A stretch of 64,000 bases of DNA, taken from the NCBI GenBank assembly GCA_945906765.1, contig CAMDRF010000001.1, positions 12,958 through 76,957 of the forward strand, written 5' to 3'. Made by a program: the position numbers and the translations under genes. Position 1 is the first letter of the stretch; every line of letters begins with the position of its first letter. The notes under the pieces were generated by a model. It saw only the letters and a list, made by a program, of their open reading frames with translations, was not told the origin of the DNA and ran no database searches. Origin of the DNA: Nitrosovibrio sp. Nv4. Lineage in GTDB: Bacteria; Pseudomonadota; Gammaproteobacteria; Burkholderiales; SG8-39. Positions 15,760 to 50,710 of the stretch are shown one piece after another.

Positions 15760-15780
15760 CCTTGTCGAAACAAGGGTTTT
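15760..15780 (+). terminator. small terminator-like hairpin
   Basis: CCTTG-tcgaaa-CAAGG followed by GTTTT. The stem is short. Confidence 0.35.
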
Positions 15781-15820
15781 GCGGCGCACAATTTTTTGCA
15801 TTCAAAAGATGGAGAAGTTA

Positions 15821-15850
15821 TTGACATAAAAGAGAGTTTTAAGATATGAT
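15821..15850 (+). promoter_or_regulatory. near-consensus sigma-70 promoter
   Basis: TTGACA (15821-15826)-18 nt-TATGAT (15845-15850), in a local AT-rich stretch. Confidence 0.6.
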
Positions 15851-15856
15851 GCATTA

Positions 15857-16082
15857 TGTTGCGTCGCAACAATCGCCGCTGAAACCGGGAGCTTCTTCCC
15901 GACTCAAGCAGCGCCATTCCGGGACCACCGAATCCTCCCGGGGTGTGCGTAAACCGAGTGTCCAGGTTGTTCCAGGACGCCCGGGAATCAACCCCAATCT
16001 CAGATCGTCTGGCGCCTCACCGAGGCGCTTGCGGCTGATTGGGGAGGGCGGCAACCCGGCGCAGAAGGTATGGAGGTTGAAA
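15857..16082 (+). promoter_or_regulatory. structured leader of about 225 nt (or independent ncRNA) upstream of the SLT gene
   Basis: Four CCGGGA/CCCGGG motifs (about 15885, 15919, 15938, 15980). Nested helix CCCCAATC (15992-15999)/GATTGGGG (16037-16044) encloses the hairpin GCGCCTC-acc-GAGGCGC (16012-16028). An SD GGAGG lies at 16073. Confidence 0.4.
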
Positions 16083-17751: not shown

Positions 17752-17802
17752 GGGGAGGGGGATTATACGGATATAATTTTTACCCGATTCTAGGAGCAGA
17801 AA

Positions 17803-20097: not shown

Positions 20098-21230
20098 TGA
20101 AAGCAAGAGCCGGACTCGTACTCACCGGAGGTGGTGCCCGGGCCGCCTACCAGGTTGGCGTGGTGAAGGCGGTGCGCGACATCCTGGGCAATCCGGTGAA
20201 GAACCCGTTTCCTATTTTATGCGGCACGTCGGCGGGGGCGATCAACGCCACCACGCTCGCGGTGTATGCCGACGACTTCAGTCGCGGGGTGGGCAATCTG
20301 ATCGAGGTGTGGGAGAACATGCACTGCCACCATGTCTACCGCACCGACGTATCGAGCATCACGCGCCGCGGCCTGCGCTGGCTGGGCGCGCTGTCGTGGC
20401 TGTCGCGCCAGAACCCGATCTCGCTGCTCGACAATGCGCCGCTGCGCGATATGCTGGAGCGCACGCTTGCGTTTGACCGCATCCAGGACCACATCGATTC
20501 CGGGGCGCTCTACGCGGTCAGCGTGACCGCATCGGGCTACACCACGGGCCAGAGCGTGTCATTTTTCCAGGGCGGCTCCGGGCTCGAGGGCTGGGAGCGC
20601 AACCAGCGCATCGGCGCGGCGGTATCGCTCAAGCTCGACTACCTGCTCGCATCGAGCGCGCTGCCGTTCATCTTTCCCGCGGTCAAGGTGCACCGCGAGT
20701 ACTTCGGCGACGGCTCGGTGCGCCAGATCGCGCCGATCAGCCCCGCGCTGCACCTCGGGGCAGATCGCGTCCTGGTGGTGGGCACCGGCCGCCAGAGTTC
20801 CGACCAGTCGCGCGCACGCTCCAACATTTATCCGTCGCTCGCCCAGGTCGCAGGCCATGCGCTCAACTCCATCTTCCTCGACGGTCTGTCGGTGGACCTC
20901 GAGCGCCTGGAGCGCATCAACCGCACGCTCAAGCTGATTCCGCCCGAGAAGCTGGCGGAGGCCAACCTGCCGCTGCGGCCGGTGAAAGTGCTGTTCATCT
21001 CGCCCTCCCAACCGCTGGAGCGCATCGCGGCGCGCTTCGTGCACGAATTGCCGCCGATGGTGCGCTTCGTGCTGCGGCCGACCGGGGCGATGAACCGCTC
21101 GGGCTCGAACCTGGCGAGTTATTTGCTGTTCGAGGAGTCGTTCTGCCGTACCCTGATCGACCTGGGCTACCAGGACACGGCGAGCCGCGAGCAGGAAGTG
21201 CGGAATTTTTTCAGCGAATCAGAGGAATAA
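20097..21230 (+). CDS. patatin-like phospholipase family protein
   Basis: Oxyanion motif LTGGGARAAYQVG and nucleophile elbow GTSAG. The ATG overlaps the maeB TAA. Confidence 0.85.
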   Translation: MKARAGLVLTGGGARAAYQVGVVKAVRDILGNPVKNPFPILCGTSAGAINATTLAVYADDFSRGVGNLIEVWENMHCHHVYRTDVSSITRRGLRWLGALSWLSRQNPISLLDNAPLRDMLERTLAFDRIQDHIDSGALYAVSVTASGYTTGQSVSFFQGGSGLEGWERNQRIGAAVSLKLDYLLASSALPFIFPAVKVHREYFGDGSVRQIAPISPALHLGADRVLVVGTGRQSSDQSRARSNIYPSLAQVAGHALNSIFLDGLSVDLERLERINRTLKLIPPEKLAEANLPLRPVKVLFISPSQPLERIAARFVHELPPMVRFVLRPTGAMNRSGSNLASYLLFEESFCRTLIDLGYQDTASREQEVRNFFSESEE

Positions 21231-21242
21231 GGAAGGACAATC

Positions 21243-21515
21243 ATGGCCGATCCGAATTCGCCGCAGAACCCGTTCGAGATGTTCCAGCGCTTGTGGGGCC
21301 CGCTGGGCGTACCCGTGCCCGGCATGACGATGCCGACCTTGGATCCGAAGGAAATCGACAAGCGTGTCCAGGAGCTGAAATCGGTGGAAATGTGGTTGTC
21401 GATGAACCTGAACATGCTGCGCACCGCGATCCAGGGCCTCGAAATGCAGAAGGCGGGGCTCACCGCGATGCAGCAGGCGATGCAGATGGGCATGCCGCAG
21501 GACAACAAACCGTAA
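21243..21515 (+). CDS. PhaM-family N-terminal-domain-only protein (PHA granule-associated regulator-like)
   Basis: 90 aa: ...FQRLWGPLGVPVPGMTMPTLDPKEIDKRVQELKSVEMWLSMNLNMLRTAIQGLEMQKA... resembles the PhaM N-terminal region (recollection). The lysine-rich tail is absent. Confidence 0.45.
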   Translation: MADPNSPQNPFEMFQRLWGPLGVPVPGMTMPTLDPKEIDKRVQELKSVEMWLSMNLNMLRTAIQGLEMQKAGLTAMQQAMQMGMPQDNKP

Positions 21516-21530
21516 CCAGGAGGCCAGGCA

Positions 21531-22502
21531 ATGGCAAAAGCTGTTCGGTACCACAAGCAGGGCGGACCCGAGGTCATGCAGTACGAAGACGTTCCGGTCG
21601 GCGACCCGGGGCAGGGGCAGGTGCGCATCCGGCATACGGCGATCGGCGTCAATTTTGTCGATACCTACCAGCGCTCCGGCCTGTATCCGATGCAGCTGCC
21701 GCAGGTGGCGGGCAACGAAGGCGCGGGCGTGGTGGATGCGGTCGGCGCGGGCGTGACCGACCTGAAAGCCGGCGACCGCGTCGCCTATACCGGCTTGTCG
21801 GGCTCGTATTGCGAGATGCGCCTCGTGCCGGCGGACCGGATGGTCAAGCTGCCGCAGGGCATCAGCGACGAGCAGGCCGCTTCCATGATGTTGAAGGGCC
21901 TGACGGTGCATTACCTGATCCACACCACCTACCCGGTGAAAAAGGGCGAGACGGTGCTCTGGCACGCCGCGGCCGGCGGCGTCGGCCTGATCGCCTGCCA
22001 ATGGCTCAAGGCGCTGGGCGTCGTCACCATCGGCACCGCGGGATCGGACGAAAAGACCGCGCTCGCCAAGGCCCACGGCGCCGACCACGTGATCAACTAC
22101 TCCACGGAAAAATTCGTCGATCGCGTCAAGGCGATCACCGGCGGCAAGGGCGTGCCCGTGGTCTACGATTCGGTCGGCAAAACCACCTGGGAAGGCACGC
22201 TCGATTGCCTGAGCCCGCGCGGCCTCGTCGTGTCGTTCGGCAACGCATCAGGCCCGGTGGCGCCGGTGAACCTGGGGATCCTCTCCACCAAGGGCTCGCT
22301 CTACGTCACGCGCCCGACGCTCGCCACGCACATCGCCAGCCGCGCCGACCTGGTCGAGCGTTCGAACTCGCTGTTCGACATCGTCAAATCCGGCAAGGTA
22401 AAAATCGAGACCACGGCGAAGTACAAGCTAGCCGACGCGCAGCAGGCGCACCGCGACCTGGAATCGCGCAAGACCACCGGGTCCGTGATCCTCACGCCCT
22501 GA
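21531..22502 (+). CDS. qor: NADPH:quinone oxidoreductase (zeta-crystallin type MDR)
   Basis: 323 aa with the medium-chain dehydrogenase fold and nucleotide motif AAAGGVG. Confidence 0.85.
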   Translation: MAKAVRYHKQGGPEVMQYEDVPVGDPGQGQVRIRHTAIGVNFVDTYQRSGLYPMQLPQVAGNEGAGVVDAVGAGVTDLKAGDRVAYTGLSGSYCEMRLVPADRMVKLPQGISDEQAASMMLKGLTVHYLIHTTYPVKKGETVLWHAAAGGVGLIACQWLKALGVVTIGTAGSDEKTALAKAHGADHVINYSTEKFVDRVKAITGGKGVPVVYDSVGKTTWEGTLDCLSPRGLVVSFGNASGPVAPVNLGILSTKGSLYVTRPTLATHIASRADLVERSNSLFDIVKSGKVKIETTAKYKLADAQQAHRDLESRKTTGSVILTP

Positions 22503-22520
22503 GGGCGGGGAGTCGCGCCG

Positions 22521-23123
22521 TTGACGCTGGAGGAACTTCGGCGGCGCTTCGCCGGGGCCGCGCCGCACTCTGAATTCCTCTATGGCGACGAGGGCACCCG
22601 GCCGGGGCGCGAAGCGCTCACCCCGGCCTCGGTTCTGATTCCGATCGTGGCGCGCGAGCCGGCCGGGGGCGCTGGCCTCACGGTGATCTTCACTCGGCGC
22701 GCCGCCCACCTGAAGGACCACTCCGGCCAGGTCAGCTTTCCCGGCGGGCGCGCCGCGGCCGGCGACTCTTCCGCCGAAGCGACCGCGCTGCGCGAAACGC
22801 GCGAGGAAATCGGGCTCGACAGCGCTCGCGTCGAGCTGCTCGGACGGCTGGCGGACTACCACACGCGCACCGGTTACCTCGTCACCCCGGTCGTGGGCGT
22901 GGTCGCGCCGCCCTTCGAACTGACGGCGGACGCCAACGAAGTGGATGAGATCTTCGAGGTGCCGCTCGTGTTCCTGCTCGACCCCGCCAACCACCAGCGC
23001 CAGTCGCGCGAGTGGCAGGGCGAGCTGCGCTGGTTTTTCTCCATGCAGTATGAGCGCCACACCATTTGGGGCGCGACCGCCGGCATGCTGGTGAACCTCG
23101 CGCGCCATCTGTCGCATGGTTGA
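22521..23123 (+). CDS. CoA pyrophosphatase (Nudix)
   Basis: Nudix box GGRAAAGDSSAEATALRETREEIGL and a preceding HSGQVSFPGG motif typical of NudL-type enzymes. TTG start. Confidence 0.8.
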   Translation: MTLEELRRRFAGAAPHSEFLYGDEGTRPGREALTPASVLIPIVAREPAGGAGLTVIFTRRAAHLKDHSGQVSFPGGRAAAGDSSAEATALRETREEIGLDSARVELLGRLADYHTRTGYLVTPVVGVVAPPFELTADANEVDEIFEVPLVFLLDPANHQRQSREWQGELRWFFSMQYERHTIWGATAGMLVNLARHLSHG

Positions 23124-27915: not shown

Positions 27916-29303
27916 TCGAGGGGCACCACTTTGCCGGGGTTCATGAGGCCTTCCGGGTCGAAGACTTTCTTGATGTCGCGCATCAGGTCCATCATGTCAT
28001 CGCCCAGCTCCATGCGCATCGAACCCATCTTGCCCATGCCGATGCCGTGCTCGCCGGTGCAGGTGCCTTCCATTTTCAGCGCGCGCTCGATCAGGCGCTT
28101 GTTGAACTGCTTGGCGAGCTCGGTCTGCTCGGGTTTGTCCGGGTCCACCAGCAGCATGAGGTGGAAGTTGCCGTCGCCGATGTGACCGAGCAGCGGCACC
28201 GGATTGATGTAGTCCTTCATGTCTTCCATGGTCTCGCGCACGCACTCGGCGAGGCGCGAGATCGGCACGCAGACGTCGGTCGAGACCGCGCGCGCGCCGG
28301 GCGTCAACTGCAGGCAGGCGAAGTAGGCGTTGTGACGCGCATCCCAGAGCGCGGTGCGTTCCTCGGCCTTGGTCGCCCAGATGAAATCCATGCCGCCATT
28401 TTCCTTCGCGATCGCCTGCACTGTTTCGGCCTGTTCCACTACAGATGTTTTTGTTCCATGAAATTCAAAAAAAACAGTGGGCGCGACACGGTAGCTGGTT
28501 TTCTTGTACTTGTTGATCGCGCCCACGGTCTTTTCGCAGACGATGTCGCAGCGCGCGATCGGCACGCCGGCCTGAATGGTCTGGATCACGGTGTTGGTGC
28601 AGCCGTCCACCGATTCGAAGGCGCAGACCGCCGCCGACATGGCTTCCTGCACCGGGTAGAGGCGTACCGTGACCTCGGTGATGATCCCCAGCGTGCCCTC
28701 GGAGCCGACGAACAGGCGCGTCAGGTCATAGCCCGCGGCCGATTTCTTCGCGCGGCGCGAGGTCTGGATGATGCGGCCATCCGCCAACACCACCTTGAGG
28801 GAGATCACGTTCTCGCGCATCGTGCCGTAGCGCACGGCGTTGGTGCCGGAGGCGCGCGTCGCCGCCATGCCGCCGAGCGTCGCGTCCGCGCCCGGGTCCA
28901 CCGGAAAGAACAGGCCCGTGTGCTTGATATGTTCGTTCAGCTGCTTGCGCGTCACGCCGGCCTGGACCACGGCGTCCAGATCGGATTCATGCACTGCCAG
29001 CACTTTGTTCATCTGCGAGAGGTCGATGCACACGCCGCCCTGCACCGCGAGGATGTGGCCTTCGAGCGAAGTACCGACGCCGTAGGGAATCATCGGCACC
29101 CGGTGCGTACGGCAGATATTGACCACGTCACGGACTTCTTCGGTGGTATGCAGGAATACGACCACGTCCGGCAGGGCGTACGGGAAGTAGGACTCGTCCT
29201 TGCCGTGGTGCTCGCGCACCGGGGGCGAGGTGGAGACGCGCTCGCCGAGCAGGGCTTTCAGCTCGGCGACGACTGATTGATCAAATTCGCGGGCTTTGTT
29301 CAT
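27912..29303 (-). CDS. FAD-linked oxidase (GlcD/D-lactate dehydrogenase-like)
   Basis: 463 aa with an FAD_binding_4 N-domain (PYGVGTSLEGH) and a C-terminal FAD-oxidase domain (GTCTGEHGIG). Confidence 0.85.
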   Translation of the reverse strand: MNKAREFDQSVVAELKALLGERVSTSPPVREHHGKDESYFPYALPDVVVFLHTTEEVRDVVNICRTHRVPMIPYGVGTSLEGHILAVQGGVCIDLSQMNKVLAVHESDLDAVVQAGVTRKQLNEHIKHTGLFFPVDPGADATLGGMAATRASGTNAVRYGTMRENVISLKVVLADGRIIQTSRRAKKSAAGYDLTRLFVGSEGTLGIITEVTVRLYPVQEAMSAAVCAFESVDGCTNTVIQTIQAGVPIARCDIVCEKTVGAINKYKKTSYRVAPTVFFEFHGTKTSVVEQAETVQAIAKENGGMDFIWATKAEERTALWDARHNAYFACLQLTPGARAVSTDVCVPISRLAECVRETMEDMKDYINPVPLLGHIGDGNFHLMLLVDPDKPEQTELAKQFNKRLIERALKMEGTCTGEHGIGMGKMGSMRMELGDDMMDLMRDIKKVFDPEGLMNPGKVVPLE

Positions 29304-29514: not shown

Positions 29515-30920
29515 TAGGTAACTCCTTTCAAGATGCGGTTGGCCAGTTGCTTGCCGAGTTCGACGCCCCACTGGTCGAAGGAATTGATGTTCCACAGCAC
29601 GCCTTGCGTGAAGACCTTGTGCTCATACAGTGCAATCAGCCGGCCAAGGTCGCGCGGCACGAAAGACCGGAATGCAAGGACGCTCGACGGGCGGTTGCCC
29701 TCGTGGCGCCGGTGCGCCGGCAACCCGGCGTCAGCTGTACCGTACGCAAGCGCGTCGGCCTGCGCGCGCGCATTGGCCGAAAGTACTTCGTTCACGGAGC
29801 AGTCGATGAAGTCCGCCGCCACGGGCTGGGGGCCCTGGTGCAGCAGCTGCATGAACGCGTGCTGCGCCGGCGTGCCTTCGGCGCCAAAGAGCACCGGGGT
29901 GGTGGCGTAGCCGACCGTGCGGCCTTCGCGGTCGATGCTCTTGCCGTTCGATTCCATCTCCAGTTGTTGCAGGTACGCTGGCAGCTGGCGCAGCCGGTGC
30001 GCGTAAGGCAGCACGGCGTGCGCGTGAATGCCGAGGAAGTTCACGTTCCAGACGCCGAGCAGCGCCATCAGCGCCGGCACATTGCTCGCCAGCGGTTCCT
30101 GCAGGAAGTGCTCGTCGATTTCGCGCGCGCCCGCCAAAAACTCGCTGAACGCGCTCTCGCCGACGGCCAGCAGTCCGGCAAAGCCAGCGGCCGACCAGAC
30201 CGAATAGCGGCCGCCGACCGAGTCCGGCATCTGCAGGATTTCGCTGGCGCCGAATTGTTCTGCAGCTTTGGCGTTTGCAGTTACCGCTATGAGGTTCTTG
30301 TATCCGAGACGGCGCGCGGCCGTGGCGTTCGAGATTGTTTCCAGAGTCGAAAAAGTCTTTGATACGGCGACAAGCAGCGTCGCGTCCGGTTCGGCGCCGG
30401 CGAGCGCGCGTTCCAGCTCGACCGGGTCGACGTTGGCGACGAAGCGCACATCCGGTGTGCCCGCATTTTCCGCGGATCCGAAGGCGTCCGCCAGCAGCCG
30501 CGGGCCGAGGTCGGAGCCGCCGGTGCCGAGATTGACGATTCTTTTGAATTTATTCTCGCTTCGAATCTTTGAGGCAAGACCTTGCATGCGAAAAAGAAGA
30601 TCCTGAACCTCTTTGGTCGCTGCGTCCCCGGCGCGCAGGGTGGTGTGCGTCGCCGTGTTGATTTCCTTTCCGGAAAAAAGCGCGGCGCGCCATTCATCGA
30701 AGCCGCGCTCGGTCGCGAGCTGGATCAGAAGGCGCAGCGTGAGCGCGCCCACGCGCTGGCGCGAATAGTCGAGCTGCACGCCCGGCGCTTCGGCGACCAG
30801 CTGCCGCGGGCGTCCCGGATCGCGCGCCAGCAATTCGGCGAGCCGCGCCTTGCGCCACGTGTCGGCGTGCGCCTCGAGTTTTTGCCAGGCGGGGCAGTCG
30901 AGGGGCGAAGTGGTGTTCAT
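29514..30920 (-). CDS. pgi: glucose-6-phosphate isomerase (compact 468-aa form)
   Basis: Motifs GTGGSDLGP, VGGRYSVWSA, QLEMESNGKS, GTPAQHAF and FDQWGVELGKQLA. It is shorter than the roughly 550-aa proteobacterial type. Confidence 0.8.
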   Translation of the reverse strand: MNTTSPLDCPAWQKLEAHADTWRKARLAELLARDPGRPRQLVAEAPGVQLDYSRQRVGALTLRLLIQLATERGFDEWRAALFSGKEINTATHTTLRAGDAATKEVQDLLFRMQGLASKIRSENKFKRIVNLGTGGSDLGPRLLADAFGSAENAGTPDVRFVANVDPVELERALAGAEPDATLLVAVSKTFSTLETISNATAARRLGYKNLIAVTANAKAAEQFGASEILQMPDSVGGRYSVWSAAGFAGLLAVGESAFSEFLAGAREIDEHFLQEPLASNVPALMALLGVWNVNFLGIHAHAVLPYAHRLRQLPAYLQQLEMESNGKSIDREGRTVGYATTPVLFGAEGTPAQHAFMQLLHQGPQPVAADFIDCSVNEVLSANARAQADALAYGTADAGLPAHRRHEGNRPSSVLAFRSFVPRDLGRLIALYEHKVFTQGVLWNINSFDQWGVELGKQLANRILKGVT

Positions 30921-35137: not shown

Positions 35138-35994
35138 AACTATTTTGGGGCCTGTTGTTGTCCGGTTTCCTGATCGGAAATGCATCGGGGCAGAACCCAT
35201 TTAGCATCCTCGGCAAGGCCGTGACCACTTCCATGGACGCCCGCACCAAGTCCGAAGTGACCGCCGACGCCGAAATCGGCGCCGGCGCGTCCAAGCGCCT
35301 GCTGGACAACAAGAAGGCGGAGTGGGCGGGGGTGACCGTGCTCGTCTTCGCGCAGCACGCGGTGATCGCGGGCGCGGTCAAATCGGCGGAGGTGAAGAAG
35401 CTGGTCGAGGAAATCGTCAAGCGCGATCCGAAGCTGCGCTCGACCCGGAATGAGCTCCTGGTGGGCGATATCGGCAGCCTCGCTCGCGATACCGCGCTGG
35501 AGGCGGAGATCAACGCCAAGCTCACCGCGGCGAAGGGCGTCTCGTCGGTCAACATGCAACTGAGCTACCAGACTGCCTTCAGCCCCCGCAGCTTGCGCAG
35601 TTCGGCATCGGCCGTGACCAGCGGAACGCCGTATTCGAGCGCCGTCGCAGCGACGAGGCGATCGGCAGGGTCGCCATGGCGAAACGCGTCCGATTGCGCG
35701 AGGACGGCAATTTCCGGCGTGATCGGCAGGGTGCGGATGTGGCGCGCCTGGAGCAGGTCGCTGATGAAGGCGGCGGGATCACCGCGCGCGTCGATTTTGC
35801 CCCTTGCGGCCAGCATCGCCATTTCCCACAGGCAGATGTCGCTGCAGGCGAGGCTGCGCGATTCGGTGCCCTCGGCCAGGGCCTGCTTCGCCCGGCGCGA
35901 AAGGCGCCTGGGTTCCAGGGCATCGAACACCATGACCTGGGTGTCCAGGGTGATCAACGCTCTGCGTCCCAGGTTTCCTTCGGCATTTTCATGA
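35134..35994 (+). pseudogene. DolP/YraP-like dual-BON protein, second BON domain truncated; ORF tail is antisense read-through of vapC
   Basis: Signal peptide, one complete BON domain (DAEIGAGASKRLL...VKSAEVKKLVEEIVKRDPKLRSTRNELLV) and the start of a second (DTALEAEINAKLTAAKGVSSVNMQ). Homology stops at about 35559, 6 nt before the vapC stop codon. Confidence 0.6.
35565..35957 (-). CDS. vapC: type II toxin VapC (PIN domain)
   Basis: MITLDTQVMVFDALEP...LVAATALEYGVPLVTADAELRKL, 130 aa. Confidence 0.85.
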   Translation of the reverse strand: MITLDTQVMVFDALEPRRLSRRAKQALAEGTESRSLACSDICLWEMAMLAARGKIDARGDPAAFISDLLQARHIRTLPITPEIAVLAQSDAFRHGDPADRLVAATALEYGVPLVTADAELRKLRGLKAVW

Positions 35995-36190
35995 TGTCGC
36001 CGACGATACGCGCCCCGTTCTTGCGCATTTCCGCCAGCCGCTTGCGCGCCGCCTCGGCGCGATCCTGCTCCGGGACGATGCGCGCCACCACCTTGCCGTG
36101 GACCATGACCTCGATTTCCTCGCCGCGCTTCACGCGCGCGAGATAGGCCGGGAGATTCTGGCGCAGCTCCGTAACCTTGACCTTGGGCAT
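35954..36190 (-). CDS. Phd/YefM family antitoxin
   Basis: MPKVKVTELRQNLPAYLARVKRGEEIEVMVHGKVVARIVP... overlaps the vapC start by 4 nt. Confidence 0.8.
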   Translation of the reverse strand: MPKVKVTELRQNLPAYLARVKRGEEIEVMVHGKVVARIVPEQDRAEAARKRLAEMRKNGARIVGDIMKMPKETWDAER

Positions 36191-36269
36191 GGGGTTTCCT
36201 TTATGTACATAAAAATTGTACATAACGCGGGCCTCGGCGGCAAGACCGAGGGGCTATCATTGCGCCCGC

Positions 36270-38882
36270 ATGCCCGGCCAGGAGATCGCTAAACAGGAGC
36301 TGTTCGTCGGCCTGGCCGAAAGCCGGGTGGGGGAGGATGCGCGCGGCATCACCGTCGTCACGCCCAACCGACGCCTGGCCCAGGTGCTGAAGTCCGAATT
36401 CGATGCCTTCCAGGCAAGCAAGGGTCTTGCCGTATGGCAAGACGCGGACATCCTGCCCCTTGAGGCATTCGTCGGCCGTTGCTACGAGGACGCCTTGTAC
36501 TCGGAAGAAGCCGCCTCGGGCGGCAGCCTGCCGATGCTCCTTTCCGACACGCAGTCGCGCGCGCTCTGGGAGGAAGCGATCCGCGGCTCGCGCTGGAGCG
36601 GCGCGCTGCTCGACGTGCCGCAGACCGCGGCCCGCGCGCAGGAATCCTGGCAACGGGCGCAGGCCTGGCGCATCGCGGGCGCCCTGGAAAAATTCGAGGC
36701 AACCGAAGACACGCGCGCCTTCGCCGACTGGGCCCGGGCCTACGCGCGCCGCCTGAAGAAGGACGGCCTCATCGATGCGTCCCTCCTTGCGGATCTTGAT
36801 CTGAAGAACAAATTCAAAAGCCCCGCACTGCTCGTCGCCTACGCCTTCGACGTACTGCCGCCGCAGACCGGGGATTTGTTTGCGCGTTTTGAATGGGTTT
36901 CCTGCGCCCCTGAAAGGAAAAATCCGGTTCTGAAAAAAACCTCGTTTGCCTCGCCGCGCGACGAGCTCGAAAGTGCGGCACGCTGGGGGCGCGCGCGGCT
37001 GGCGCAAGGCAAGGAACGCATCGGCGTTGTGGTGCCCGACCTGAAGCTGCGCCGGCGCGAGGTGGCGCGCGTATTCGCGCGCGTCATGGGCTCGTCCCTG
37101 CCGTTCGAGCTTTCCATCGGCGAGCCGCTGGGCAACTACCCCCTGGTTGCCTTTGCATTGAACCTTCTTGAATTTTCCCAGGGTGAAAAACCCTATGAAG
37201 AGGTGAGTCGCATCCTGCGCTCGCCTTTCCTCGCCGGCGCGGAGGGCGAGATGGCGGCGCGCGCGCGGCTCGACGCGAAGCTGCGGCGCGACGCAGGCGC
37301 GGAGATTTCCCTGGCGAAATTGACCGGCATGGTTGGCGGGAGTTTGTCTTTGCGCTTGATTTTGGAATCCTTATTCAAGAAATCAAAAGAAAAAGAAGGA
37401 AAACCTCTCTCCCCGCACGACTGGGCGCAGCACTACACCGCGCTGCTGGATGCGGCGGGCTTTCCCGGGGATCGCGTGCCCGATTCGGCCGAATTCCAGG
37501 CGCGCGCCAGGTTCAACGAGACGCTGGGCGAATTTGCCCGGCTGAGCCTTGTCACTTCCGGAATTTCCGCCCGGGACGCCTTGCGCCAGTTGCGCCGGCT
37601 GTGCGCGGAGACGCTGTTCCAGCCCGAGGGCGTGGGGGCGCCGGTACAGGTGCTGGGCCTGCTCGAATCCGCCGGCATCGAGTTCGACGCGCTCTGGGTA
37701 AGCGGGCTCACCGACGGCGCCTGGCCGCAGCGCGCGCATGCGGATCCCTTCCTGCCCGTGATGCTGCAGCGGCAGGCCGGCATCCCGGAAGCGTTCGCCG
37801 AACCCTCGCTCGCGCTCGACCGGCGCCGCACCGAGGGCTGGCTGGGGGCTGCGCACGAGGTGGTGTTCTCCTGGGCGCGGCGCGAAGAGGACCGCGAGCT
37901 CTCGCCCAGCCCGCTCATCGCGCAAGTGCCGGAAGGGATTGTCGATCTGCCGTTTCTGATTTCGTACAGGGATTTGATTTTCAAAAACGGAAAAACGGAA
38001 ACGTTCACGGACGAGAAAGCCCCGCTGCTTGCAAACAAGTCGGTGCGCGGCGGCACCCGCGTGCTCGCCGACCAGGCCGCGTGCCCGTTCCGCGCCTACG
38101 CGCGCCACCGCCTCGGCGCCGAGGCATTGGACGCGCCCGAACCGGGACTCGATGCGATGCAGCGCGGTCAGCTGCTGCACGCGCTGATGGCGGGGATCTG
38201 GGGCGAATTGAAGAGCAAAGCGGGTTTGGATGGCGATGTTTCTCTCGTCATTTCCAGGAGTGCGGAAAAAGCAGTAAGGGAAATGGAAATAGAAGGCCGC
38301 TTCGCTGAGTTGGAAGTACAGCGGCTGGTCCGCCTGGCGGGCGAGTGGCTCGACGTCGAGCGCGAACGTCCGGCTTTTGAGGTTATTCATATAGAACAAA
38401 AAAAGACACTTGAAGTCGGCGGTCTCTCATTGAACGGCCGCATCGACCGCATGGATCGACTCGAAGGCGGCACGCACGCCATCATCGACTACAAGACCGG
38501 CAGCCGCGCGACGCCGAACGACTGGATGGGCGAGCGGCCCGATGAACCGCAGCTGCCGCTCTACGTCATCACCGCGAACGTCAACGTCTCGGCGGTCGCG
38601 TTCGCGAAGCTGAAGACCGGCGACATGAAGTTCACCGGCTTGTCCCTGCGGGAAAACGAGATACCGGGCGTCAAGCCCGCCAAGTCCTGGCCCGGCCTGA
38701 TCCAGTACTGGAAGACGGAACTCGAAAAACTGGCCTCGGGTTTCGCGCAGGGCGAAGCGCGTGTCGATCCCAAAAAAGGCCTCGCCACCTGCCGCAACTG
38801 CGATTTGCAGCCGTTGTGCCGCGTGCACGAGCGCCTCAGCGCCCTCGCGGACGTAGAGGAGGGCGATGACTCTCATGGCTGA
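36270..38882 (+). CDS. addB: AddB-type PD-(D/E)XK nuclease subunit with Fe-S cysteines
   Basis: 870 aa. The C-terminal nuclease core is GRIDRMD...AIIDYKTG. The four-Cys set is AACPFRAY ... CRNCDLQPLC. It is followed by an overlapping UvrD-type helicase gene. Confidence 0.75.
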   Translation: MPGQEIAKQELFVGLAESRVGEDARGITVVTPNRRLAQVLKSEFDAFQASKGLAVWQDADILPLEAFVGRCYEDALYSEEAASGGSLPMLLSDTQSRALWEEAIRGSRWSGALLDVPQTAARAQESWQRAQAWRIAGALEKFEATEDTRAFADWARAYARRLKKDGLIDASLLADLDLKNKFKSPALLVAYAFDVLPPQTGDLFARFEWVSCAPERKNPVLKKTSFASPRDELESAARWGRARLAQGKERIGVVVPDLKLRRREVARVFARVMGSSLPFELSIGEPLGNYPLVAFALNLLEFSQGEKPYEEVSRILRSPFLAGAEGEMAARARLDAKLRRDAGAEISLAKLTGMVGGSLSLRLILESLFKKSKEKEGKPLSPHDWAQHYTALLDAAGFPGDRVPDSAEFQARARFNETLGEFARLSLVTSGISARDALRQLRRLCAETLFQPEGVGAPVQVLGLLESAGIEFDALWVSGLTDGAWPQRAHADPFLPVMLQRQAGIPEAFAEPSLALDRRRTEGWLGAAHEVVFSWARREEDRELSPSPLIAQVPEGIVDLPFLISYRDLIFKNGKTETFTDEKAPLLANKSVRGGTRVLADQAACPFRAYARHRLGAEALDAPEPGLDAMQRGQLLHALMAGIWGELKSKAGLDGDVSLVISRSAEKAVREMEIEGRFAELEVQRLVRLAGEWLDVERERPAFEVIHIEQKKTLEVGGLSLNGRIDRMDRLEGGTHAIIDYKTGSRATPNDWMGERPDEPQLPLYVITANVNVSAVAFAKLKTGDMKFTGLSLRENEIPGVKPAKSWPGLIQYWKTELEKLASGFAQGEARVDPKKGLATCRNCDLQPLCRVHERLSALADVEEGDDSHG

Positions 38883-41811
38883 TGCCTCGATTCGCGCGAT
38901 AGCCGACAGGGCCGAACGAGAGCGCGCGCTCGACCCCGCGCGCTCCTTCATCGTGCAGGCGCCCGCGGGCTCGGGTAAGACCACGCTCCTGGTGGGGCGG
39001 TTTCTCAAGCTTTTGTCTCTGACAACCAAACCTGAAGAAGTCCTCGCCATCACCTTCACCAAGAAGGCCGCGATCGAGATGCGCAAGCGCGTGCTTGAAA
39101 AACTTCCGAACTCAGGCGAAGTGGCCCACCGCCTGCGCATCGAGACCATCGACGCGTTCTGCCTCTCGCTCGCGCGCCAGTTGCCGGTGCCCTCGCAGTT
39201 CGGCGTCGCGCCGGGCATCACCGGCGATCCGGAGCCGCTCTACCGCGAGGCGGCCTGGCGCGTGGCTTCCAGCTTCGAGATTCCCGCCGTCGTGCGGCTG
39301 CTCGCGCACCTCGACAACAACGTCGGCACCGTGGTGTCGCTCATCGCGAGCATGCTCGCCAGGCGCGACCAGTGGCTGCGCAAGACCGGCCGCGCGCCCA
39401 CAAGGGAGGATCTTGAATTTGCATTTTCTTCTGAAAGAAAACGTCTTTCAGAAAAAGCGCGGAAACTTGACCCGCGTTCATCGGAGGAATTCGCCGCAAG
39501 CGTCCTAACGAAAAAGGGCGAGTGGCGCAAGCGCTCCAATGACGCCAAGCTGCTCGCGGGCAACGAAGCCTTGCGCGAAGCGCTCCAGGCCCTGCTTTCC
39601 CTTCCGCCAGACAGGTACAGCGAACCGCAATGGGAGGCGCTGGAAGCCATGCTGGCGCTCCTGCCGCTCGCGGCCGCCGAATTGAAACTCGTCTTCGCCG
39701 CGCGCGGCGAGGTGGACTTCACCGAGATCGCGCAAGGCGCGGTGCGCGCGCTGGGCAGCGCGGATGATCCAAGTGATTTGCTTTTATTATTGGATTCAAA
39801 AATAAATCATGTTCTGGTGGATGAGTTCCAGGACACCTCCATCAGCCAGTGGGAGCTGCTCGAGCGCCTCACCGCCGGCTGGCAGCCGGACGACGGTCGC
39901 ACGCTGTTCGTTGTCGGCGATCCGATGCAGAGCATCTACCGCTTCCGCGAGGCGGAAGTGGGCCTCTTCCTGCGCGCGCGGCGCGAGGGATTGGGAACTG
40001 CAGGCTTGCCGAACGTGAAGCTCGAGCCGCTCGCGCTGAAGACGAACTTTCGCTCCCAGGAAGGGATTGTGGAATGGGTAAATAAAACATTCTGTCTGCT
40101 TTTGCCCAAGGAAGAAAATGAAACGTCCGGCGCGGTGCCTTATTCGCCTTCGTCCCCCAACGATCCCGCGCTGCCGGGCGAGGCCGTGACCTGGCACGCC
40201 TGCCCGGATTCTGTTTTTGAATCTCAAAAAATAATTGAATTACTTCAAGAAACAAAAAATGATTGCGCGCTGCTGGTGCGCGGCCGCAGCGCGCTCGCTG
40301 ACATCGTGCCCGCGCTCAAGGCCGCCGGCATCCGCTTCCGCGCCATCGAAATCGACAAGCTGGGCGAAAAGCAGGTGGTGCAGGATCTCTTCGCCCTGAC
40401 GCGCGCGCTCACGCATTTGGCCGACCGCGTGGCGTGGCTCGCGATCCTGCGAGCGCCTTGGGTTGGTTTACCTTTGCTCGAATTCAGTTCTTTTTTCGAG
40501 GGAAAGCACGAAACAATCTGGGAACTCGTGCAAAACATTTCCAAACTCGAACGGTTTCGTTCCGTCCTCGCGCCCGCGCTCGCCAATCGCCTGCGCGGGA
40601 CGCTGCGCGACCGCGTCGAAAGCGTCTGGCTCTCACTCGGCGGCCCCGCCTGCGTCAGCGAGCGCGGCGAACTCGAAGACGCCGAAACCTATCTCGATGC
40701 GCTGGAGAAGCTGGAACAGGCGGGCGAGGTGGACTTCGCGCGCCTCGCCGAACTGCTGGGTGAACTCTACGCGCCGCCCGATCCCGCGGCCACCGGGAAC
40801 GACCTGCAGATCATGACCATCCACAAGGCCAAGGGCCTGGAGTTCGGCACCGTCATCGTGCCCGGCCTCGGGCGCGCGCCGGGCAAGAGCGACACGCCGC
40901 TCATGCGCTGGAAGGAACTGCCGGATAAAAGTCTTCTGCTTGCCCCTATAAAAGAAACAGGAAGCGACGATGAACCCGCCTACGAATACCTGAAGGCCCT
41001 GGACCGCGAGGCCGAAGACACCGAAGCCGCGCGCCTGCTCTACGTCGCCGCAACGCGCGCGAAGCACCGCCTGCACCTGCTCGCCTGCTCGAAGAAGGCC
41101 ATGCCGCCCAGGCGCAGCCTGCTCGCCTGCGCCTGGCCGGTCGCCGAACCGTTCTTCGAAGGCATCGCGCCGCCGGTAGCCGTGGTTGCAGCACCATCCC
41201 AACCCGCGCCCTTCATCCTCAAGCGCCTTGCCGCCGGCTGGACGCCGCCCGCGCTTCCGCCTGCCGCCGCGTGGACGGCGCCGCCCGAGGGACGCGAAGA
41301 CATGCAGATCGAGTTTTCCTGGGCGGGAGAGACGGCGCGGCACGTGGGAACGGTGGTGCACGCGTGGCTGCAGCGGATCGCCGAAGCGCAATGCAAAGGC
41401 TGGGATGCCAAACGCGTGGAATCCCTCCGGCCCGCGATTGAGCGCGACCTGCGCAGCCGGGGCGTGCAATCCGCTGGCCCCGCTGTCGAACTGGTTGTTA
41501 CCTCGCTGAAGAACGCCCTTGCCGACGAGCGCGGGCAATGGTTGCTCGGGCCGCACCCGGTGGCGCTGAACGAGCATCGGCTGCGCAGCCGCGGCCGCAG
41601 CTTCCGCATCGACCGGTACATCGAGGACGCCAAAGGCGGCAAGTGGGTCGTGGACTACAAGACGAGCGAACACAAAGGCGGCGGCATCGACGCATTCCTC
41701 GATGCCGAACGCGAGCGCTACAAGGCGCAGCTCGATCGCTATTCGGATGCGATGAAGGGCGCGCGGCGCGGCCTCTACTTCGCTTTGCTGCGCGGCTGGC
41801 GCGAGTGGTAG
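38866..41811 (+). CDS. addA: AddA-type UvrD/Rep helicase with a C-terminal RecB-family nuclease
   Basis: Walker A APAGSGKTT, VLVDEFQDTS, GDPMQSIYRFR, and the C-terminal motif FRIDRY...WVVDYKTS. Confidence 0.8.
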   Translation: MTLMADASIRAIADRAERERALDPARSFIVQAPAGSGKTTLLVGRFLKLLSLTTKPEEVLAITFTKKAAIEMRKRVLEKLPNSGEVAHRLRIETIDAFCLSLARQLPVPSQFGVAPGITGDPEPLYREAAWRVASSFEIPAVVRLLAHLDNNVGTVVSLIASMLARRDQWLRKTGRAPTREDLEFAFSSERKRLSEKARKLDPRSSEEFAASVLTKKGEWRKRSNDAKLLAGNEALREALQALLSLPPDRYSEPQWEALEAMLALLPLAAAELKLVFAARGEVDFTEIAQGAVRALGSADDPSDLLLLLDSKINHVLVDEFQDTSISQWELLERLTAGWQPDDGRTLFVVGDPMQSIYRFREAEVGLFLRARREGLGTAGLPNVKLEPLALKTNFRSQEGIVEWVNKTFCLLLPKEENETSGAVPYSPSSPNDPALPGEAVTWHACPDSVFESQKIIELLQETKNDCALLVRGRSALADIVPALKAAGIRFRAIEIDKLGEKQVVQDLFALTRALTHLADRVAWLAILRAPWVGLPLLEFSSFFEGKHETIWELVQNISKLERFRSVLAPALANRLRGTLRDRVESVWLSLGGPACVSERGELEDAETYLDALEKLEQAGEVDFARLAELLGELYAPPDPAATGNDLQIMTIHKAKGLEFGTVIVPGLGRAPGKSDTPLMRWKELPDKSLLLAPIKETGSDDEPAYEYLKALDREAEDTEAARLLYVAATRAKHRLHLLACSKKAMPPRRSLLACAWPVAEPFFEGIAPPVAVVAAPSQPAPFILKRLAAGWTPPALPPAAAWTAPPEGREDMQIEFSWAGETARHVGTVVHAWLQRIAEAQCKGWDAKRVESLRPAIERDLRSRGVQSAGPAVELVVTSLKNALADERGQWLLGPHPVALNEHRLRSRGRSFRIDRYIEDAKGGKWVVDYKTSEHKGGGIDAFLDAERERYKAQLDRYSDAMKGARRGLYFALLRGWREW

Positions 41812-41924: not shown

Positions 41925-42221
41925 GTGGAAAGCACCAGGGTATCGAGCAAGGGCCAGATGATCATCCCCAAGCGGGTGCGGGAAGCGCTCGGCCTGAAGA
42001 AGGGGGCCGAACTCGCCGTTGAGCTGCTTCCCGGAGGCGGCTTTGCCGCGCGCCTGAAGGCGCCCGATCTGGTGACCCAGGTGAGAGCCCTCGCCGGGTC
42101 GCTCTCGCACCGTGGCAAACCCAGGTGGCCCGGCCTCACGGATGACGAGGCCGTGCTGCGGGCAGTCGCCGAGGACGATGCGCGCATTCGCGCCTACGCG
42201 CGCAAGCGGCGCCGCAAGTGA
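41925..42221 (+). CDS. vapB: AbrB/MazE/SpoVT family antitoxin (VapB-like)
   Basis: VSSKGQMIIPKRVREALGLKKGAEL swapped-hairpin motif. GTG start, with GGAGGG upstream. Confidence 0.75.
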   Translation: MESTRVSSKGQMIIPKRVREALGLKKGAELAVELLPGGGFAARLKAPDLVTQVRALAGSLSHRGKPRWPGLTDDEAVLRAVAEDDARIRAYARKRRRK

Positions 42222-42613
42222 TCGCGCTCGATACCAACGTCCTCGCGCGGATCCTGCTCGAGGACGACGCGGACCAGGTGCGTCGCGCGCGCCGGCTCCT
42301 GGCCGAGGAGGGCGCCACGTTCTGGGTGCCGGTCACCGTCGTCCTCGAGCTGACCTGGGTGCTGCGGACCAGCGGACTTGCGCGCGATGCTGTCATCGGC
42401 GCGGTGCGCGGCCTGCTCGCCCTGCCACGCATGCGTTTTCAGTCCCCCGATGCGCTGGCGGCTGCGGTGCGGTGGGGCGAAGCAGGAATGGACTTCGCCG
42501 ACGCCCTGCACCTCGCCTTGAGCGCCAAGGCCGAGCGCTTCGCGACCTTCGACGAGGGTCTCGTCAAACAGGCGCGCAAGGCAGGAGCGCTCCCGGTCGT
42601 TGAAGCGCAGTAA
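42218..42613 (+). CDS. vapC: type II toxin VapC (PIN domain)
   Basis: IALDTNVLARILLEDD...DFADALHLA...FATFD. The start GTGA overlaps the antitoxin stop. Confidence 0.85.
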   Translation: MIALDTNVLARILLEDDADQVRRARRLLAEEGATFWVPVTVVLELTWVLRTSGLARDAVIGAVRGLLALPRMRFQSPDALAAAVRWGEAGMDFADALHLALSAKAERFATFDEGLVKQARKAGALPVVEAQ

Positions 42614-45249: not shown

Positions 45250-46149
45250 CTAGTGCGAATCTGGCGTACCGGTTCGAGATTCCGACTTCAGATACCAGTC
45301 GAGGATCTGCTCTCCGTTCCAGTGCAGTACGCCTTTTTTCCGGTTTATTTTTTTATAAACTTCCTCAAGATATTTGATCCGGAACGGCTGCCCGCTGATG
45401 TAGGGGTGGATCGCGATCGCCATGATCTTGGGCCGCTGCCTGCCTTCCTCGTAGTAGCGCTCGAAAGTATCCAGGCACTTCTTCGTCCAGTACGCCGCTT
45501 CGTGGTGCTGCACCATCATCACCGGGATGTCGTTGGTCTCGACTGAATAGGGCAGGGTGACGAGCGGGCCGTGGGCGGTCCTGATCTGCGTCGGTTCGTC
45601 GTCGTAGACCCAGTCGCCGATGTACTTGATGCCGGCGGCCGCGAGGTTCTCGGGCGTGTCGAGCGTCTGCGTCAGGCCCGGCCCGAGCCAGCCGACCGGG
45701 CGCTTGCCGGTGAATTTCTCGATGGTGTCCAGGGATCGCTTGATCATCGCGGGTTGATCCTCCTCGCGGTGGATCGGTCCCTGTTCGTAGCTGTGGCCCA
45801 TGAACTCCCAGCCGGCGTCCAGGCAGGTCTGCGCCACCCGCGGATAGTCGACGCAGACGCGCGCATTCAGCGCCAGCGTCGGCCGGATCTTCAGGCGGCG
45901 GAACAGTGCTTCGAAGCGCCAGAAACCGACCCGCATGCCGTACTCGTGCCAGCTCCAGTTCGGCACATCGGGCAGCAGGGGGACGCCGGTCGGCGGCGGC
46001 AGCACCTGGCGCGCCATGGCGCGCGCGATGTCCCAGACTTCGAGGTTGACGATGGTCCAGACGACCACGCGCGCGCCGCCGGGCAGCTTGAGCGGCGGGC
46101 GGTCGACAATCGCGGAATAGGGGGTTCTTTCGCGTGGAATCATGGCCAT
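45250..46149 (-). CDS. polysaccharide deacetylase family protein (PuuE/allantoinase-like subgroup)
   Basis: 299 aa: ...VVWTIVNLEVWD..., ...GWEFMGHSYEQ..., ...IAIHPYISGQPFRIKYLEE... Confidence 0.75.
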   Translation of the reverse strand: MAMIPRERTPYSAIVDRPPLKLPGGARVVVWTIVNLEVWDIARAMARQVLPPPTGVPLLPDVPNWSWHEYGMRVGFWRFEALFRRLKIRPTLALNARVCVDYPRVAQTCLDAGWEFMGHSYEQGPIHREEDQPAMIKRSLDTIEKFTGKRPVGWLGPGLTQTLDTPENLAAAGIKYIGDWVYDDEPTQIRTAHGPLVTLPYSVETNDIPVMMVQHHEAAYWTKKCLDTFERYYEEGRQRPKIMAIAIHPYISGQPFRIKYLEEVYKKINRKKGVLHWNGEQILDWYLKSESRTGTPDSH

Positions 46150-49968: not shown

Positions 49969-50710
49969 TTCCAACCGGCTTGAACTGACGATCAGCGGCA
50001 TCGCCGCCGCCTACGGCGCCGTGCGGGCGCTGCAGGGCGTTTCGATCTCGGTGAAGGACGGCGAGACGGTGGCGCTGCTCGGCACCAACGGCAACGGGAA
50101 AAGTACCCTGATGAAGTGCGTAATGGGGATTGTTCGTCCCTCAAAAGGGAAAATAGAACTGAAAATTGAAAATCAAACCTACGATCTCACGCGCCTCTCC
50201 ACCGAGGAGATCGTCGGCCTGGGCGTCGCTCTGGTGCCCGAGGGCCGGCGCCTGTTCCCGAAGCTCACCGTGGAGGAGAACCTGCTGCTCGGCGCGTTTC
50301 GCCCGCAGGCCCGCCCGGACATCGCGAAGAACCTCGCGTTCTGCTACGAAACCTTCGATGTCCTGAAAGAACGCAAACGCCAGCTCGCCGGCTCGATGTC
50401 GGGCGGCCAGCAGCAGATGCTGGCGATCGCCCGCGCGCTCATGTCTTCGCCCAAACTGCTGCTGGTGGACGAACCCTCGGTGGGCCTGTCGCCGCTGCTG
50501 GTATCGGCCACGGTGACCATGATCAAGCAGCTGAAGGAGCGCCACGGCTTGACGGTGCTGATGGCGGAACAGAATTTCCACCAGGCGATCCGCATCGCCG
50601 ACCGCGGCTACATCATCGTGCACGGCGAGATCGTGTTCGAGGGCAAGACGGTCGCCGAGCTGGAGACCAACCCCCTGGTGAAGAACTACTACCTCGGCAC
50701 GGCCGGCTGA
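49958..50710 (+). CDS. ABC transporter ATP-binding protein (LivF-like)
   Basis: Walker A GTNGNGKST, signature MSGGQQQM and Walker B LLLVDEP. TTG start. Confidence 0.85.
   Translation: MAPDSNRLELTISGIAAAYGAVRALQGVSISVKDGETVALLGTNGNGKSTLMKCVMGIVRPSKGKIELKIENQTYDLTRLSTEEIVGLGVALVPEGRRLFPKLTVEENLLLGAFRPQARPDIAKNLAFCYETFDVLKERKRQLAGSMSGGQQQMLAIARALMSSPKLLLVDEPSVGLSPLLVSATVTMIKQLKERHGLTVLMAEQNFHQAIRIADRGYIIVHGEIVFEGKTVAELETNPLVKNYYLGTAG

Follow-up and report, generated by a model that had tools for sequence, protein, structure and literature searches.

The addB and addA genes in a 64,000-nt stretch of contig CAMDRF010000001.1 of Nitrosovibrio sp. Nv4 (hereafter, the window) carry short AT-rich patches embedded in frame in otherwise GC-rich coding sequence, and patches are present at the same codon positions in approximately 20 orthologs of one betaproteobacterial clade, down to 71% identity. 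Rather than a new genetic element or a discrete functional element, the patches appear to represent an evolutionary pattern specific to this lineage. In the explanation that we favour, to which we assign a probability of roughly 0.5, they are weakly constrained, fastest-evolving and cassette-like segments of AddA and AddB that would have escaped a GC-favouring force and drifted to AT in place.

AT-rich patches in the addAB operon

The addB gene (36270–38882, + strand) is predicted from its open reading frame (ORF) and a match to Pfam PDDEXK_1 (PF12705) to encode an 870-aa PD-(D/E)XK nuclease subunit. The addA gene (38866–41811, + strand) is predicted to encode a 981-aa UvrD-type helicase with a C-terminal nuclease (PF00580, PF13361 and PF12705), and its translation contains the motifs GSGKT, DEFQD and GDPMQSIYRFR. 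The two genes overlap by 17 nt. This domain content, namely a UvrD-helicase/PD-(D/E)XK AddA and a PD-(D/E)XK partner AddB, is that of an AddAB helicase–nuclease operon, and we annotate the gene pair as such on this basis.

The original prediction had reported at least 13 AT-rich patches in the two genes. All 13 listed segments fall within the lowest 0–0.97% of equal-length windows taken from 34 other genes of the window, and they have GC contents of 0.23–0.47 and GC contents at third codon positions (GC3) of 0.14–0.46, as compared with a GC3 of 0.86 in the remaining part of addAB. A fourteenth, unlisted patch (36774–36818) likewise lies in the lowest 1% of such windows. When a strict patch was defined as a 15-codon window with a GC content of ≤0.42, addB and addA were each found to contain five, whereas codon permutation predicts 0.37–0.40 and synonymous shuffling predicts 1.0–1.2 strict patches per gene, with none of the 200 shuffles reaching five. 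Synonymous recoding is the test that the original prediction had proposed against itself, and, as run on addAB, the finding survives it. A looser threshold yielded seven patches per gene, including that at 36774–36818. Those of addB are all located within codons 169–722, and those of addA within codons 45–703, with none in the nuclease domain (codons 800–981). Each of the other 41 ORFs of the window contains zero to two strict patches, several of which are located at gene starts.

The GC contents at the first, second and third codon positions are 0.53, 0.35 and 0.46 in the patches and 0.72, 0.49 and 0.86 in the rest of addAB, and the overall GC content of the window is 65%. Codon choice in the patches switches to ATT/ATA, AAA, GAA, TTT, CTT/TTG/TTA, ACA and TCT/AGT. 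The encoded peptides, which had been described as rich in K, N, I, F, S and E, are indeed 1.5–2.6-fold enriched in N, K, F, S and E and 2–3-fold depleted of A, G and R. Because both the codon positions and the peptides shift, the patch signal is not purely synonymous, as that of a conserved rare-codon cluster would be. For one segment (40210–40264), the earlier hand count of 20% GC proved to be exact, and its flanks have GC contents of 67% and 73%. The claim that the patches cover conserved motifs holds in part. The string that had been quoted as leading to the helicase motif LVDEFQDT is located at 39778–39825. The AT-richness ends at LVDEFQDT, which is itself normally coded (CTG GTG GAT GAG TTC CAG), but the conserved DLLLxLD located just upstream is encoded in AT-rich codons (TTG, CTT and TTA, in the patch at 39765–39830).

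Conservation of the patch positions among orthologs

For comparison, codons were threaded onto protein alignments of 28 AddA and 11 AddB orthologs for which DNA sequences were available from genome and metagenome collections (designated by L numbers below). Patches recur at codons ~45–60, 180–200, 215–225, 300–320, 400–420, 450–470, 535–560, 690 and 775 of AddA and at codons ~170–185, 215–225, 295–310, 355–385, 560–580, 650–675 and 700–720 of AddB. The GC3 deficit at the AddA patch columns is −0.38 in this window, −0.37 in L008, −0.09 to −0.32 in other clade members and −0.14 in L027, which at 71% identity is the most distant ortholog with patches. In L007, which is nested in the clade and has a GC content of 70%, the deficit is −0.05, and in seven outgroups with 57–70% identity and GC3 values of 0.79–0.96, it ranges from −0.07 to +0.01. 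Because the deficit is deep in the clade and near zero in L007 and the seven outgroups, the patch trait is clade-specific, with this genome at the extreme.

The non-patch synonymous sites are approximately 80% saturated between the window and L027 (same-codon frequency of 0.649, as compared with 0.555 at saturation). Therefore, the common patch positions are not a simple inheritance of old sequence, and a position-specific process regenerates or maintains the patches. In the clade genomes, addA and addB contain 0.7–2.4 patches per kb, whereas flanking genes contain almost none, and housekeeping enzymes of 768 and 1012 aa encoded near addAB have no patches. The rho-trx-fdx-addB-addA neighbourhood is kept down to 59% identity. 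This conserved synteny argues for vertical descent, and recent horizontal transfer of the addAB operon was rejected on this ground.

The motif-coding blocks of addA (codons ~86–125, 316–375, 476–515, 636–670 and 701–740; window ~39121–41085) are 93–100% identical in DNA sequence over 60 nt between orthologs that are 70–80% identical overall. This identity is higher than codon bias alone should produce and could be due to homogenising recombination or to strong site-specific codon constraint.

Protein variability and substitution rates

The patches coincide with the most variable parts of the proteins. Amino-acid entropy in the clade is 0.89 in the patches and 0.48 elsewhere, and entropy and GC3 over 12-codon bins are negatively correlated (Spearman −0.68, p = 3e-12). 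Invariant amino-acid columns have a GC3 of 0.90 outside the patches, where variable columns have 0.79, and of 0.71 inside the patches. Since even invariant columns lose GC3 inside the patches, the effect is regional rather than per-site. From the AlphaFold model of AddA, which is of low confidence (predicted local distance difference test score of 64 and predicted template modelling score of 0.30), the secondary structure alone was used, with no fold search. In this model, most patches correspond to single predicted helices together with the adjacent loop or strand (residues 180–201, 398–411, 449–463 and 537–573 and the post-P-loop helix), and they would often lie beside a conserved helicase motif, within domains and between small structural motifs.

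Nei–Gojobori estimates for 11 ortholog pairs gave rates of synonymous (dS) and nonsynonymous (dN) substitution that are 2–4.5 and 2–4 times higher, respectively, in the patches than elsewhere. Positive or diversifying selection is not indicated, because dN/dS is not raised in the patches (0.05–0.24, as compared with 0.14–0.26 elsewhere). G↔C differences at 4-fold sites increase from 0.20 in conserved blocks to 0.26 in intermediate regions and 0.38 in the patches. As these differences are GC-neutral, their increase indicates that the patch DNA is older or faster-evolving. In the patch cores, pooled over the clade orthologs, the GC contents of 4-fold and 2-fold sites are 0.48 and 0.34, whereas they are 0.91 and 0.73 elsewhere; the rough intergenic GC content is 0.62. 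Because the cores were selected for low GC, their composition requires no selection for AT and fits a relaxation toward the neutral level. By a back-of-envelope estimate, a GC-favouring force that holds the GC content of 4-fold sites at 0.91 should lower dS approximately twofold, which is close to the contrast seen.

A similar relation was found in other genes. Local amino-acid identity is positively correlated with GC3 in all six genes compared, and the clearest dips are present in the three most divergent of them, namely addB (68% identity), the phosphoglucose isomerase gene PGI (75%) and addA (77%). PGI (− strand) contains two sharp GC3 dips, at 30542–30614 and ~30254–30290 of the window, and in the alignment they coincide with dips in L057 (970–2307), a syntenic clade genome. 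Both are weaker than the addAB patches, and the first is located in an indel-prone, poorly conserved stretch. An esterase gene has a dip in L056 and L027.

In-place change and cassette exchange

At sites where the window and its nearest relatives differ in GC state, A/T in the window against G/C in the relative predominates over the reverse (26:4 and 19:3, mostly C>T and G>A), a skew that is partly due to ascertainment bias. AT-rich and GC-rich versions of the patches form graded series made up mostly of single-base C>T and G>A steps, and the patch peptides remain near those of GC-rich relatives. Two collection scans with the patch peptides EWVNKTFC and EGKHETIW revealed no low-GC relative carrying them: the relatives at ≥54% identity are all GC-rich (GC3 ≥0.75), and the few distant low-GC matches are 21–51% identical. 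Given the graded series and the lack of a low-GC carrier in these scans, we conclude that the AT-richness most likely arose in place and was not imported.

One patch has been exchanged as a block. Between the window and L026, which is 97% identical, 79 codons of addA differ, and 13 of these are found among the 17 codons 43–59, where many codons have two- or three-base changes, as compared with a gene-wide difference of ~8%. L026 carries at this site a peptide type (SRFLELLK..) that is found in more distant lineages, and the best DNA match to the swapped cassette among the sampled orthologs is to clade members, at an identity of 0.73. In addition, patch codons 393–421 and 530–565 each occur in three to four discrete peptide classes, the distribution of which is at odds with overall relatedness. 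These sequence patterns support an exchange of patches, in the manner of cassettes, among lineages within the clade, and the near-identical motif-coding flanks could have served as anchors of the exchange.

Tests for artefacts, elements, motifs and polarity

The 5.7-kb addAB DNA shows 100% identity among four assemblies from different runs, two of them MEGAHIT-style (ENA) and two from Logan; the metagenomes that carry the contig are ERZ27280223, ERZ27280310, ERR5863107 and ERR3719144. These four independent and identical assemblies, made by two assembly pipelines, rule out an assembly or consensus artefact, one of five candidates that the original prediction had listed without preferring any and one that is also contradicted by the presence of patches at the same codons in orthologs. 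In-frame insertion was ruled out as well, because most patches align without gaps to patch-free orthologs. Such patches in metagenome-assembled genomes should not be mistaken for misassemblies or foreign insertions. The patches do not form a repeat family; their mutual matches are composition-driven, and one 32-nt inverted match of 72% is present between two of them. In Rfam, no patch had a match at E ≤ 1. Hairpin or RNA structure was rejected on the basis of the folding z-scores of the 13 patches relative to shuffles, which span −2.2 to +1.0 and average approximately −0.3. A scan for the sigma-70 consensus, which is a weak test, detected no promoter-like sites within addB or addA, and intragenic promoters, another candidate of the original prediction, are thus unsupported. 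Terminator-like sites occur at the chance level, and no IHF, LexA or sigma-54 patterns were seen by eye.

In the 18 patches analysed (13 in addAB and five in other genes), TTGAAT/ATTCAA occurs nine times, as compared with 2.2 in dinucleotide shuffles. Against the same kind of shuffle, the sequence TTTTGAAT is found five times rather than 0.4, and the window-wide count of TTTTGAA is 10, as compared with 3.6. In view of the low counts and the large number of k-mers tested, a shared DNA motif was not accepted, and the patches show neither a regular spacing nor a shared motif beyond composition. They contain A-tracts (AAAAA 19 times and GAAAAA eight times), TpA steps and runs of six or seven A residues in AAA-AAA/AAG contexts. 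A single regulatory rare codon resembling the bldA system was also rejected, because, unlike TTA (enriched, with 5 of the 12 in the window), neither AGA nor CTA is enriched.

In addAB, T-richness precedes A-richness by 16–36 nt (lag correlation of ~0.25, as compared with ~0.06 at negative lags), whereas the rest of the window is symmetric. This polarity is present in all patch-bearing orthologs (including L005, L006, L008, L010, L011, L012 and L013) and absent in L007 and L009. It is weak at 4-fold sites (T:A of 24:7 in the left halves and 17:14 in the right halves), and patch-free orthologs retain a hydrophobic-then-hydrophilic order at the same places. We rejected the polarity as a nucleotide-level signal, because it is largely protein order read through AT-rich codons.

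Origin of the patches

We infer the existence of a GC-favouring force, its local failure and its identity as follows. Most coding DNA of the clade would be kept at a GC3 of ~0.86–0.9 by this force, which may be selection for G/C-ending codons or GC-biased gene conversion tied to homologous recombination. The force would not act effectively on the patch segments, the composition of which would approach a roughly neutral level through in-place drift, with C>T and G>A as the main changes, and amino-acid usage would follow the drift (R→K, A→S/T, L/V→I/F and G/D→N). An inherited landscape of protein constraint would make the same positions AT-rich in related genomes, to a depth that depends on the lineage and is greatest here, and the segments could be swapped between lineages by recombination anchored in near-identical motif-coding flanks. 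The addAB operon may be the patch-richest because near-invariant helicase and nuclease motifs alternate in it with many poorly constrained helices.

Several points weigh against drift of weakly constrained segments as an explanation. Equally variable AddA bins (nuclease domain codons 800–981 and codons 133–144) keep a GC3 of 0.8–0.9; protein variability alone is insufficient for a patch. The patches at codons 296–326 and 682–703 cover well-conserved peptide (entropy of 0.41–0.50), and lineages that are ~80% synonymously saturated repeatedly use rare codons such as ATA, CTT, AGA and TTT at identical conserved residues, a recurrence that looks more like maintenance than drift. Some cores have GC contents of 20–33%, well under the rough intergenic value of 62% that serves as a neutral proxy. 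Furthermore, the outgroups and L007 are equally variable and have no dips, so that the lineages would have to be assumed to differ in mutation bias or recombination regime, and the role of the force could be assigned to gene conversion or to codon selection. Finally, the hydropathy order of the proteins explains the T-then-A polarity in part only.

The patches may instead be selected, position-conserved clusters of rare codons or AU-rich sequence that cause slow elongation, drop-off on A-runs or exposure to RNase and that would tune folding or keep the low-copy AddAB scarce. Patch positions conserved over near-saturated synonymous divergence, rare codons that recur at conserved residues (ATA in PIKE, CTT-xTG-CTT, GAA-AGA and TTT), the concentration in addAB next to patch-free housekeeping enzymes, the runs of six or seven A residues, and the predicted location within domains and between small structural motifs, as for conserved rare-codon clusters (PMC5438181), all fit such a function. 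Nevertheless, we consider it unlikely, because codon rarity is not kept in the seven same-fold outgroup orthologs or in L007, all three codon positions and the peptide shift rather than synonymous sites alone, the enrichment tracks A/T content rather than rarity (neither AGA nor CTA is enriched), dS is raised rather than lowered, and similar dips follow local divergence in PGI and the esterase. The vanishing of the dips in the seven outgroups and the dependence of GC3 on local divergence in neighbouring genes weaken both the pause sites and the nucleoid-protein sites that the original prediction had put forward. The latter would be sites at which an AT-preferring nucleoid protein (H-NS, MvaT or Lsr2 type) binds or nucleates and could silence or attenuate addAB, for example by bridged filaments that pause RNA polymerase. 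Sharp islands of 40–115 bp with A-tracts, TpA steps and 23–47% GC in a window of 65% GC are what sites of a xenogeneic silencer would look like; TTGAAT/ATTCAA is modestly enriched, the signal resides in composition rather than in a specific codon, and the patches are clade-specific. However, the lack of a shared motif beyond composition and of regular spacing, a placement that follows protein variability and secondary-structure units, and the same kind of dip in the housekeeping gene PGI make such sites quite improbable.

Explanations at the level of mutation or import also have to be considered. Local AT-biased mutational hot spots could arise if AT codons required by the protein seeded easily melted DNA in which cytosines are deaminated faster, so that the patch spreads, and a repair deficiency of the lineage could amplify the process. 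Such hot spots would account for the joint rise of dS, dN and GC-neutral G↔C differences without a raised dN/dS, the predominance of C>T and G>A, the clade specificity and the finding that transition-changing 2-fold sites are more AT-rich than 4-fold sites (GC of 0.34 and 0.48). We regard them as improbable, because the mechanism and the missing repair gene are without independent support, because the swap of codons 43–59, with its multi-base codon changes, is typical of recombination and not of point mutation, and because the GC-rich state of variable K/E-containing segments of the nuclease domain would be left unexplained. Recombination is also central to the proposal, likewise among the candidates of the original prediction, that the patches are micro-mosaics of short gene-conversion tracts from low-GC donors, which would have entered via conserved motif-coding flanks. 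One part of it stands, namely exchange of cassettes within the clade: a whole patch with clustered multi-base differences was swapped between 97%-identical genomes, discrete allele classes are mosaically distributed, flanks that are 93–100% identical over 60 nt could anchor recombination, and dS and dN are both raised, as imported DNA would show. The low-GC donor is the part that finds little support. AT-rich and GC-rich versions of one patch are linked by graded single-base series, the swapped cassette is no closer to a foreign donor, with its best match among the sampled orthologs lying within the clade, the peptide scans gave only GC-rich relatives at ≥54% identity and distant low-GC matches of 21–51%, and synteny indicates vertical inheritance; import from low-GC donors is accordingly very improbable, marginally more so than nucleoid-protein sites. 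An assembly artefact, a small in-frame mobile element or a structured RNA has a negligible probability. Apart from the single inverted match between two patches, only visual oddity favours any of these, and the identical assemblies, the absence of indels from most patches, the lack of a repeat family and of an Rfam match, and the unremarkable folding stand against them.

Bolder formulations are conceivable, at odds well short of even. The patches may be a readout, at 50-bp resolution, of how GC is maintained, in which conserved motif blocks would be both homogenised and raised to a GC3 of ~0.9 by biased gene conversion linked to recombination, and divergent, indel-prone helix cassettes incapable of forming heteroduplex would lie at the AT-biased mutational equilibrium; alternatively, they may be a lineage-specific selected device that attenuates AddAB via mRNA or a nucleoid protein.

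Individual patches and neighbouring genes

All patches of addB and addA are given on the + strand. In addB, the additional patch at 36774–36818 (codons 169–183; DLKNKFKS) is followed by a mild one at 36873–36950 (codons ~202–227; GC 0.46, GC3 0.46) and by that at 37150–37203 (codons ~294–311; GC 0.43, GC3 0.24), the position of which shows a weaker dip in L014, L012, L011, L006 and L013. The patch at 37341–37410 (codons ~358–380, SLRLILESLFKKSKEKEGK; GC 0.33) was found in nearly all clade orthologs, including L027, and that at 37935–38010 (codons ~556–580; GC 0.43, GC3 0.32) is common across the clade, L027 and L012 included. The remaining two are located at 38205–38320 (codons ~646–683; GC 0.47; core at 38250–38294) and 38373–38440 (codons ~702–724; GC 0.43, GC3 0.27). 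The last one holds the heptamer A_AAA_AAG, a classic −1 slippery sequence that is formed by CAA AAA AAG at 38399–38405 (codons 710–712). A −1 slip at this site would lead into GAC ACT TGA and would end AddB at approximately residue 714, before the C-terminal nuclease/Cys region; the heptamer could be a chance outcome of an A-rich patch.

In addA, the patch at 39001–39043 (codons 46–59), which is the one exchanged in L026, covers the C-terminal half of the predicted post-P-loop helix and the loop preceding motif Ia. That at 39408–39515 (codons ~181–217), the core of which corresponds to predicted helix 180–201, is common to L008, L011 and L027. The patch at 39765–39830 (codons ~300–322; GC 0.32, GC3 0.14) would comprise a helix and the loop leading into the motif II strand, and it is common only to L026, L012 and, weakly, L014. 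The segment at 40061–40126 (codons ~399–420), a predicted helix following motif IV, occurs in three discrete peptide allele classes among the relatives. The deepest patch is located at 40207–40266 (codons ~448–467; GC 0.23, GC3 0.20; predicted helix 449–463). The patch at 40458–40563 (codons ~531–566; predicted helices 537–573) is present in nearly all clade orthologs and shows at least four peptide allele classes with a mosaic distribution. The last patch, at 40921–40975 (codons ~686–703), adjoins an indel site, and the conserved LLLAPIKETG in it is encoded as CTT xTG CTT GCC CCT ATA AAA GAA in several lineages. GC-rich in-frame insertions directly adjoin this codon-690 patch in L006, L013, L027 and L028. 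The insertion in L006, near AddA codon ~687 of the window, is a tandem (A)PSSPQELA repeat of approximately three copies, and the site is an indel hot spot.

Single internal AT-rich patches of the same style are also present in the genes for an FAD oxidase (28420–28493, −), a polysaccharide deacetylase (45311–45393, −), an ABC ATPase (50120–50198, +) and an AMP-binding enzyme (57665–57757, +). In these four genes, T-runs are followed by A-runs, as in TTCAAAAA or TTTTTGAA.

The addAB operon is flanked on both sides by toxin–antitoxin genes, with a PhdYeFM-type antitoxin gene upstream (35954–36253, −) and genes for a MazE-like antitoxin and a PIN toxin downstream (~41925–42613, +). The MazE/PIN pair is also located downstream of addA in L056 and L057. 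In several relatives (L055, L056, L057 and L027), addB and addA are not adjacent, and an ahpC-type peroxiredoxin gene lies between them on the opposite strand; in L056, the two genes are additionally separated by a 4.5-kb glycosyltransferase cluster. L028, the most distant syntenic relative, contains a lower-GC island (13816–22590; 46–56% GC) 3′ of addA, which carries a type I restriction–modification system (hsdR/M/S), a gene for a SAVED-domain protein and a ParB-like gene.

Relation to known systems

Literature searches for a described equivalent of the addAB patches returned general codon-usage work only, and the statement in the original prediction that no standard feature class produces this pattern appears to be fair. 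Rickettsia palindromic elements are in-frame palindromic insertions in coding genes. The patches resemble them in being short, compositionally odd, in-frame stretches inside conserved genes, but they are not insertions and have neither a sequence family nor a fold. Segmentally variable genes are said to have been described by Zheng, Roberts and Kasif in 2004, and low-GC hypervariable loci are known in GC-rich species, such as the pyoverdine, pilA and O-antigen regions of Pseudomonas aeruginosa. In common with these, addAB has variable segments between near-invariant ones, recombining allele classes and a low GC content in the variable parts. However, the scale in addAB is 40–115 bp rather than whole genes or domains, dN/dS is not raised and thus gives no sign of diversifying selection, and AddAB belongs to the housekeeping repair enzymes rather than to the surface or restriction-specificity proteins.

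The translational-accuracy effect, in which codon bias is linked to residue conservation, was reportedly documented by Akashi in 1994 and by Stoletzki and Eyre-Walker in 2007. A comparable tendency is present in addAB outside the patches, where G/C-ending codons are commoner at conserved residues (0.90, as compared with 0.79). The drop of GC3 from 0.9 to 0.1–0.3 over 60 nt is, however, far larger, and its regional nature, with invariant residues in the patches at 0.71, is unpredicted by a per-site model.

GC-biased gene conversion in bacteria, with recombination linked to high GC3, is reported to have been found by Lassalle and colleagues in 2015. Such conversion would predict AT-rich shadows where heteroduplex cannot form, that is, in divergent and indel-prone segments. 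Descriptions of it concern entire genes or genome regions, whereas the addAB patches measure ~50 bp, and the link to them is one that we infer; to our knowledge, no effect of this conversion at 50-bp resolution has been described. Bacterial genomes can be GC-rich despite AT-biased mutation, and the cause is sought mainly in selection and in biased gene conversion. A GC3 that switches between ~0.9 and 0.1–0.3 within tens of bases, in one low-expression operon and at clade-inherited positions, would provide, given polymorphism and recombination data, a natural experiment for separating these forces, and it is mainly molecular evolutionists to whom the patches should be of interest.

The nearest described class is that of conserved rare-codon clusters. 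Rare-codon clusters were reportedly analysed by Clarke and Clark in 2008. The conserved ones are located within domains, between small structural motifs, and not at domain borders (Chaney et al. 2017, PMC5438181). The addAB patches are similar in that their clustering is far above chance (5, as compared with 1.0–1.2 in synonymous shuffles), they occupy the same alignment positions in homologs of the clade, and, according to the predicted structure, they too would lie within domains between small structural motifs and not at domain borders. They differ in that first and second codon positions and the peptide also shift, rarity is kept only within one clade and is gone in L007 and in same-fold outgroups (57–70% identity), and the patches coincide with the fastest-evolving segments, where dS is raised. 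Position-conserved rare-codon clusters are usually read as selected pauses. The comparison with addAB, where the clusters vanish in same-fold outgroups, suggests that they can be a by-product of a conserved constraint landscape and cautions against assuming by default that conserved rare-codon clusters are functional.

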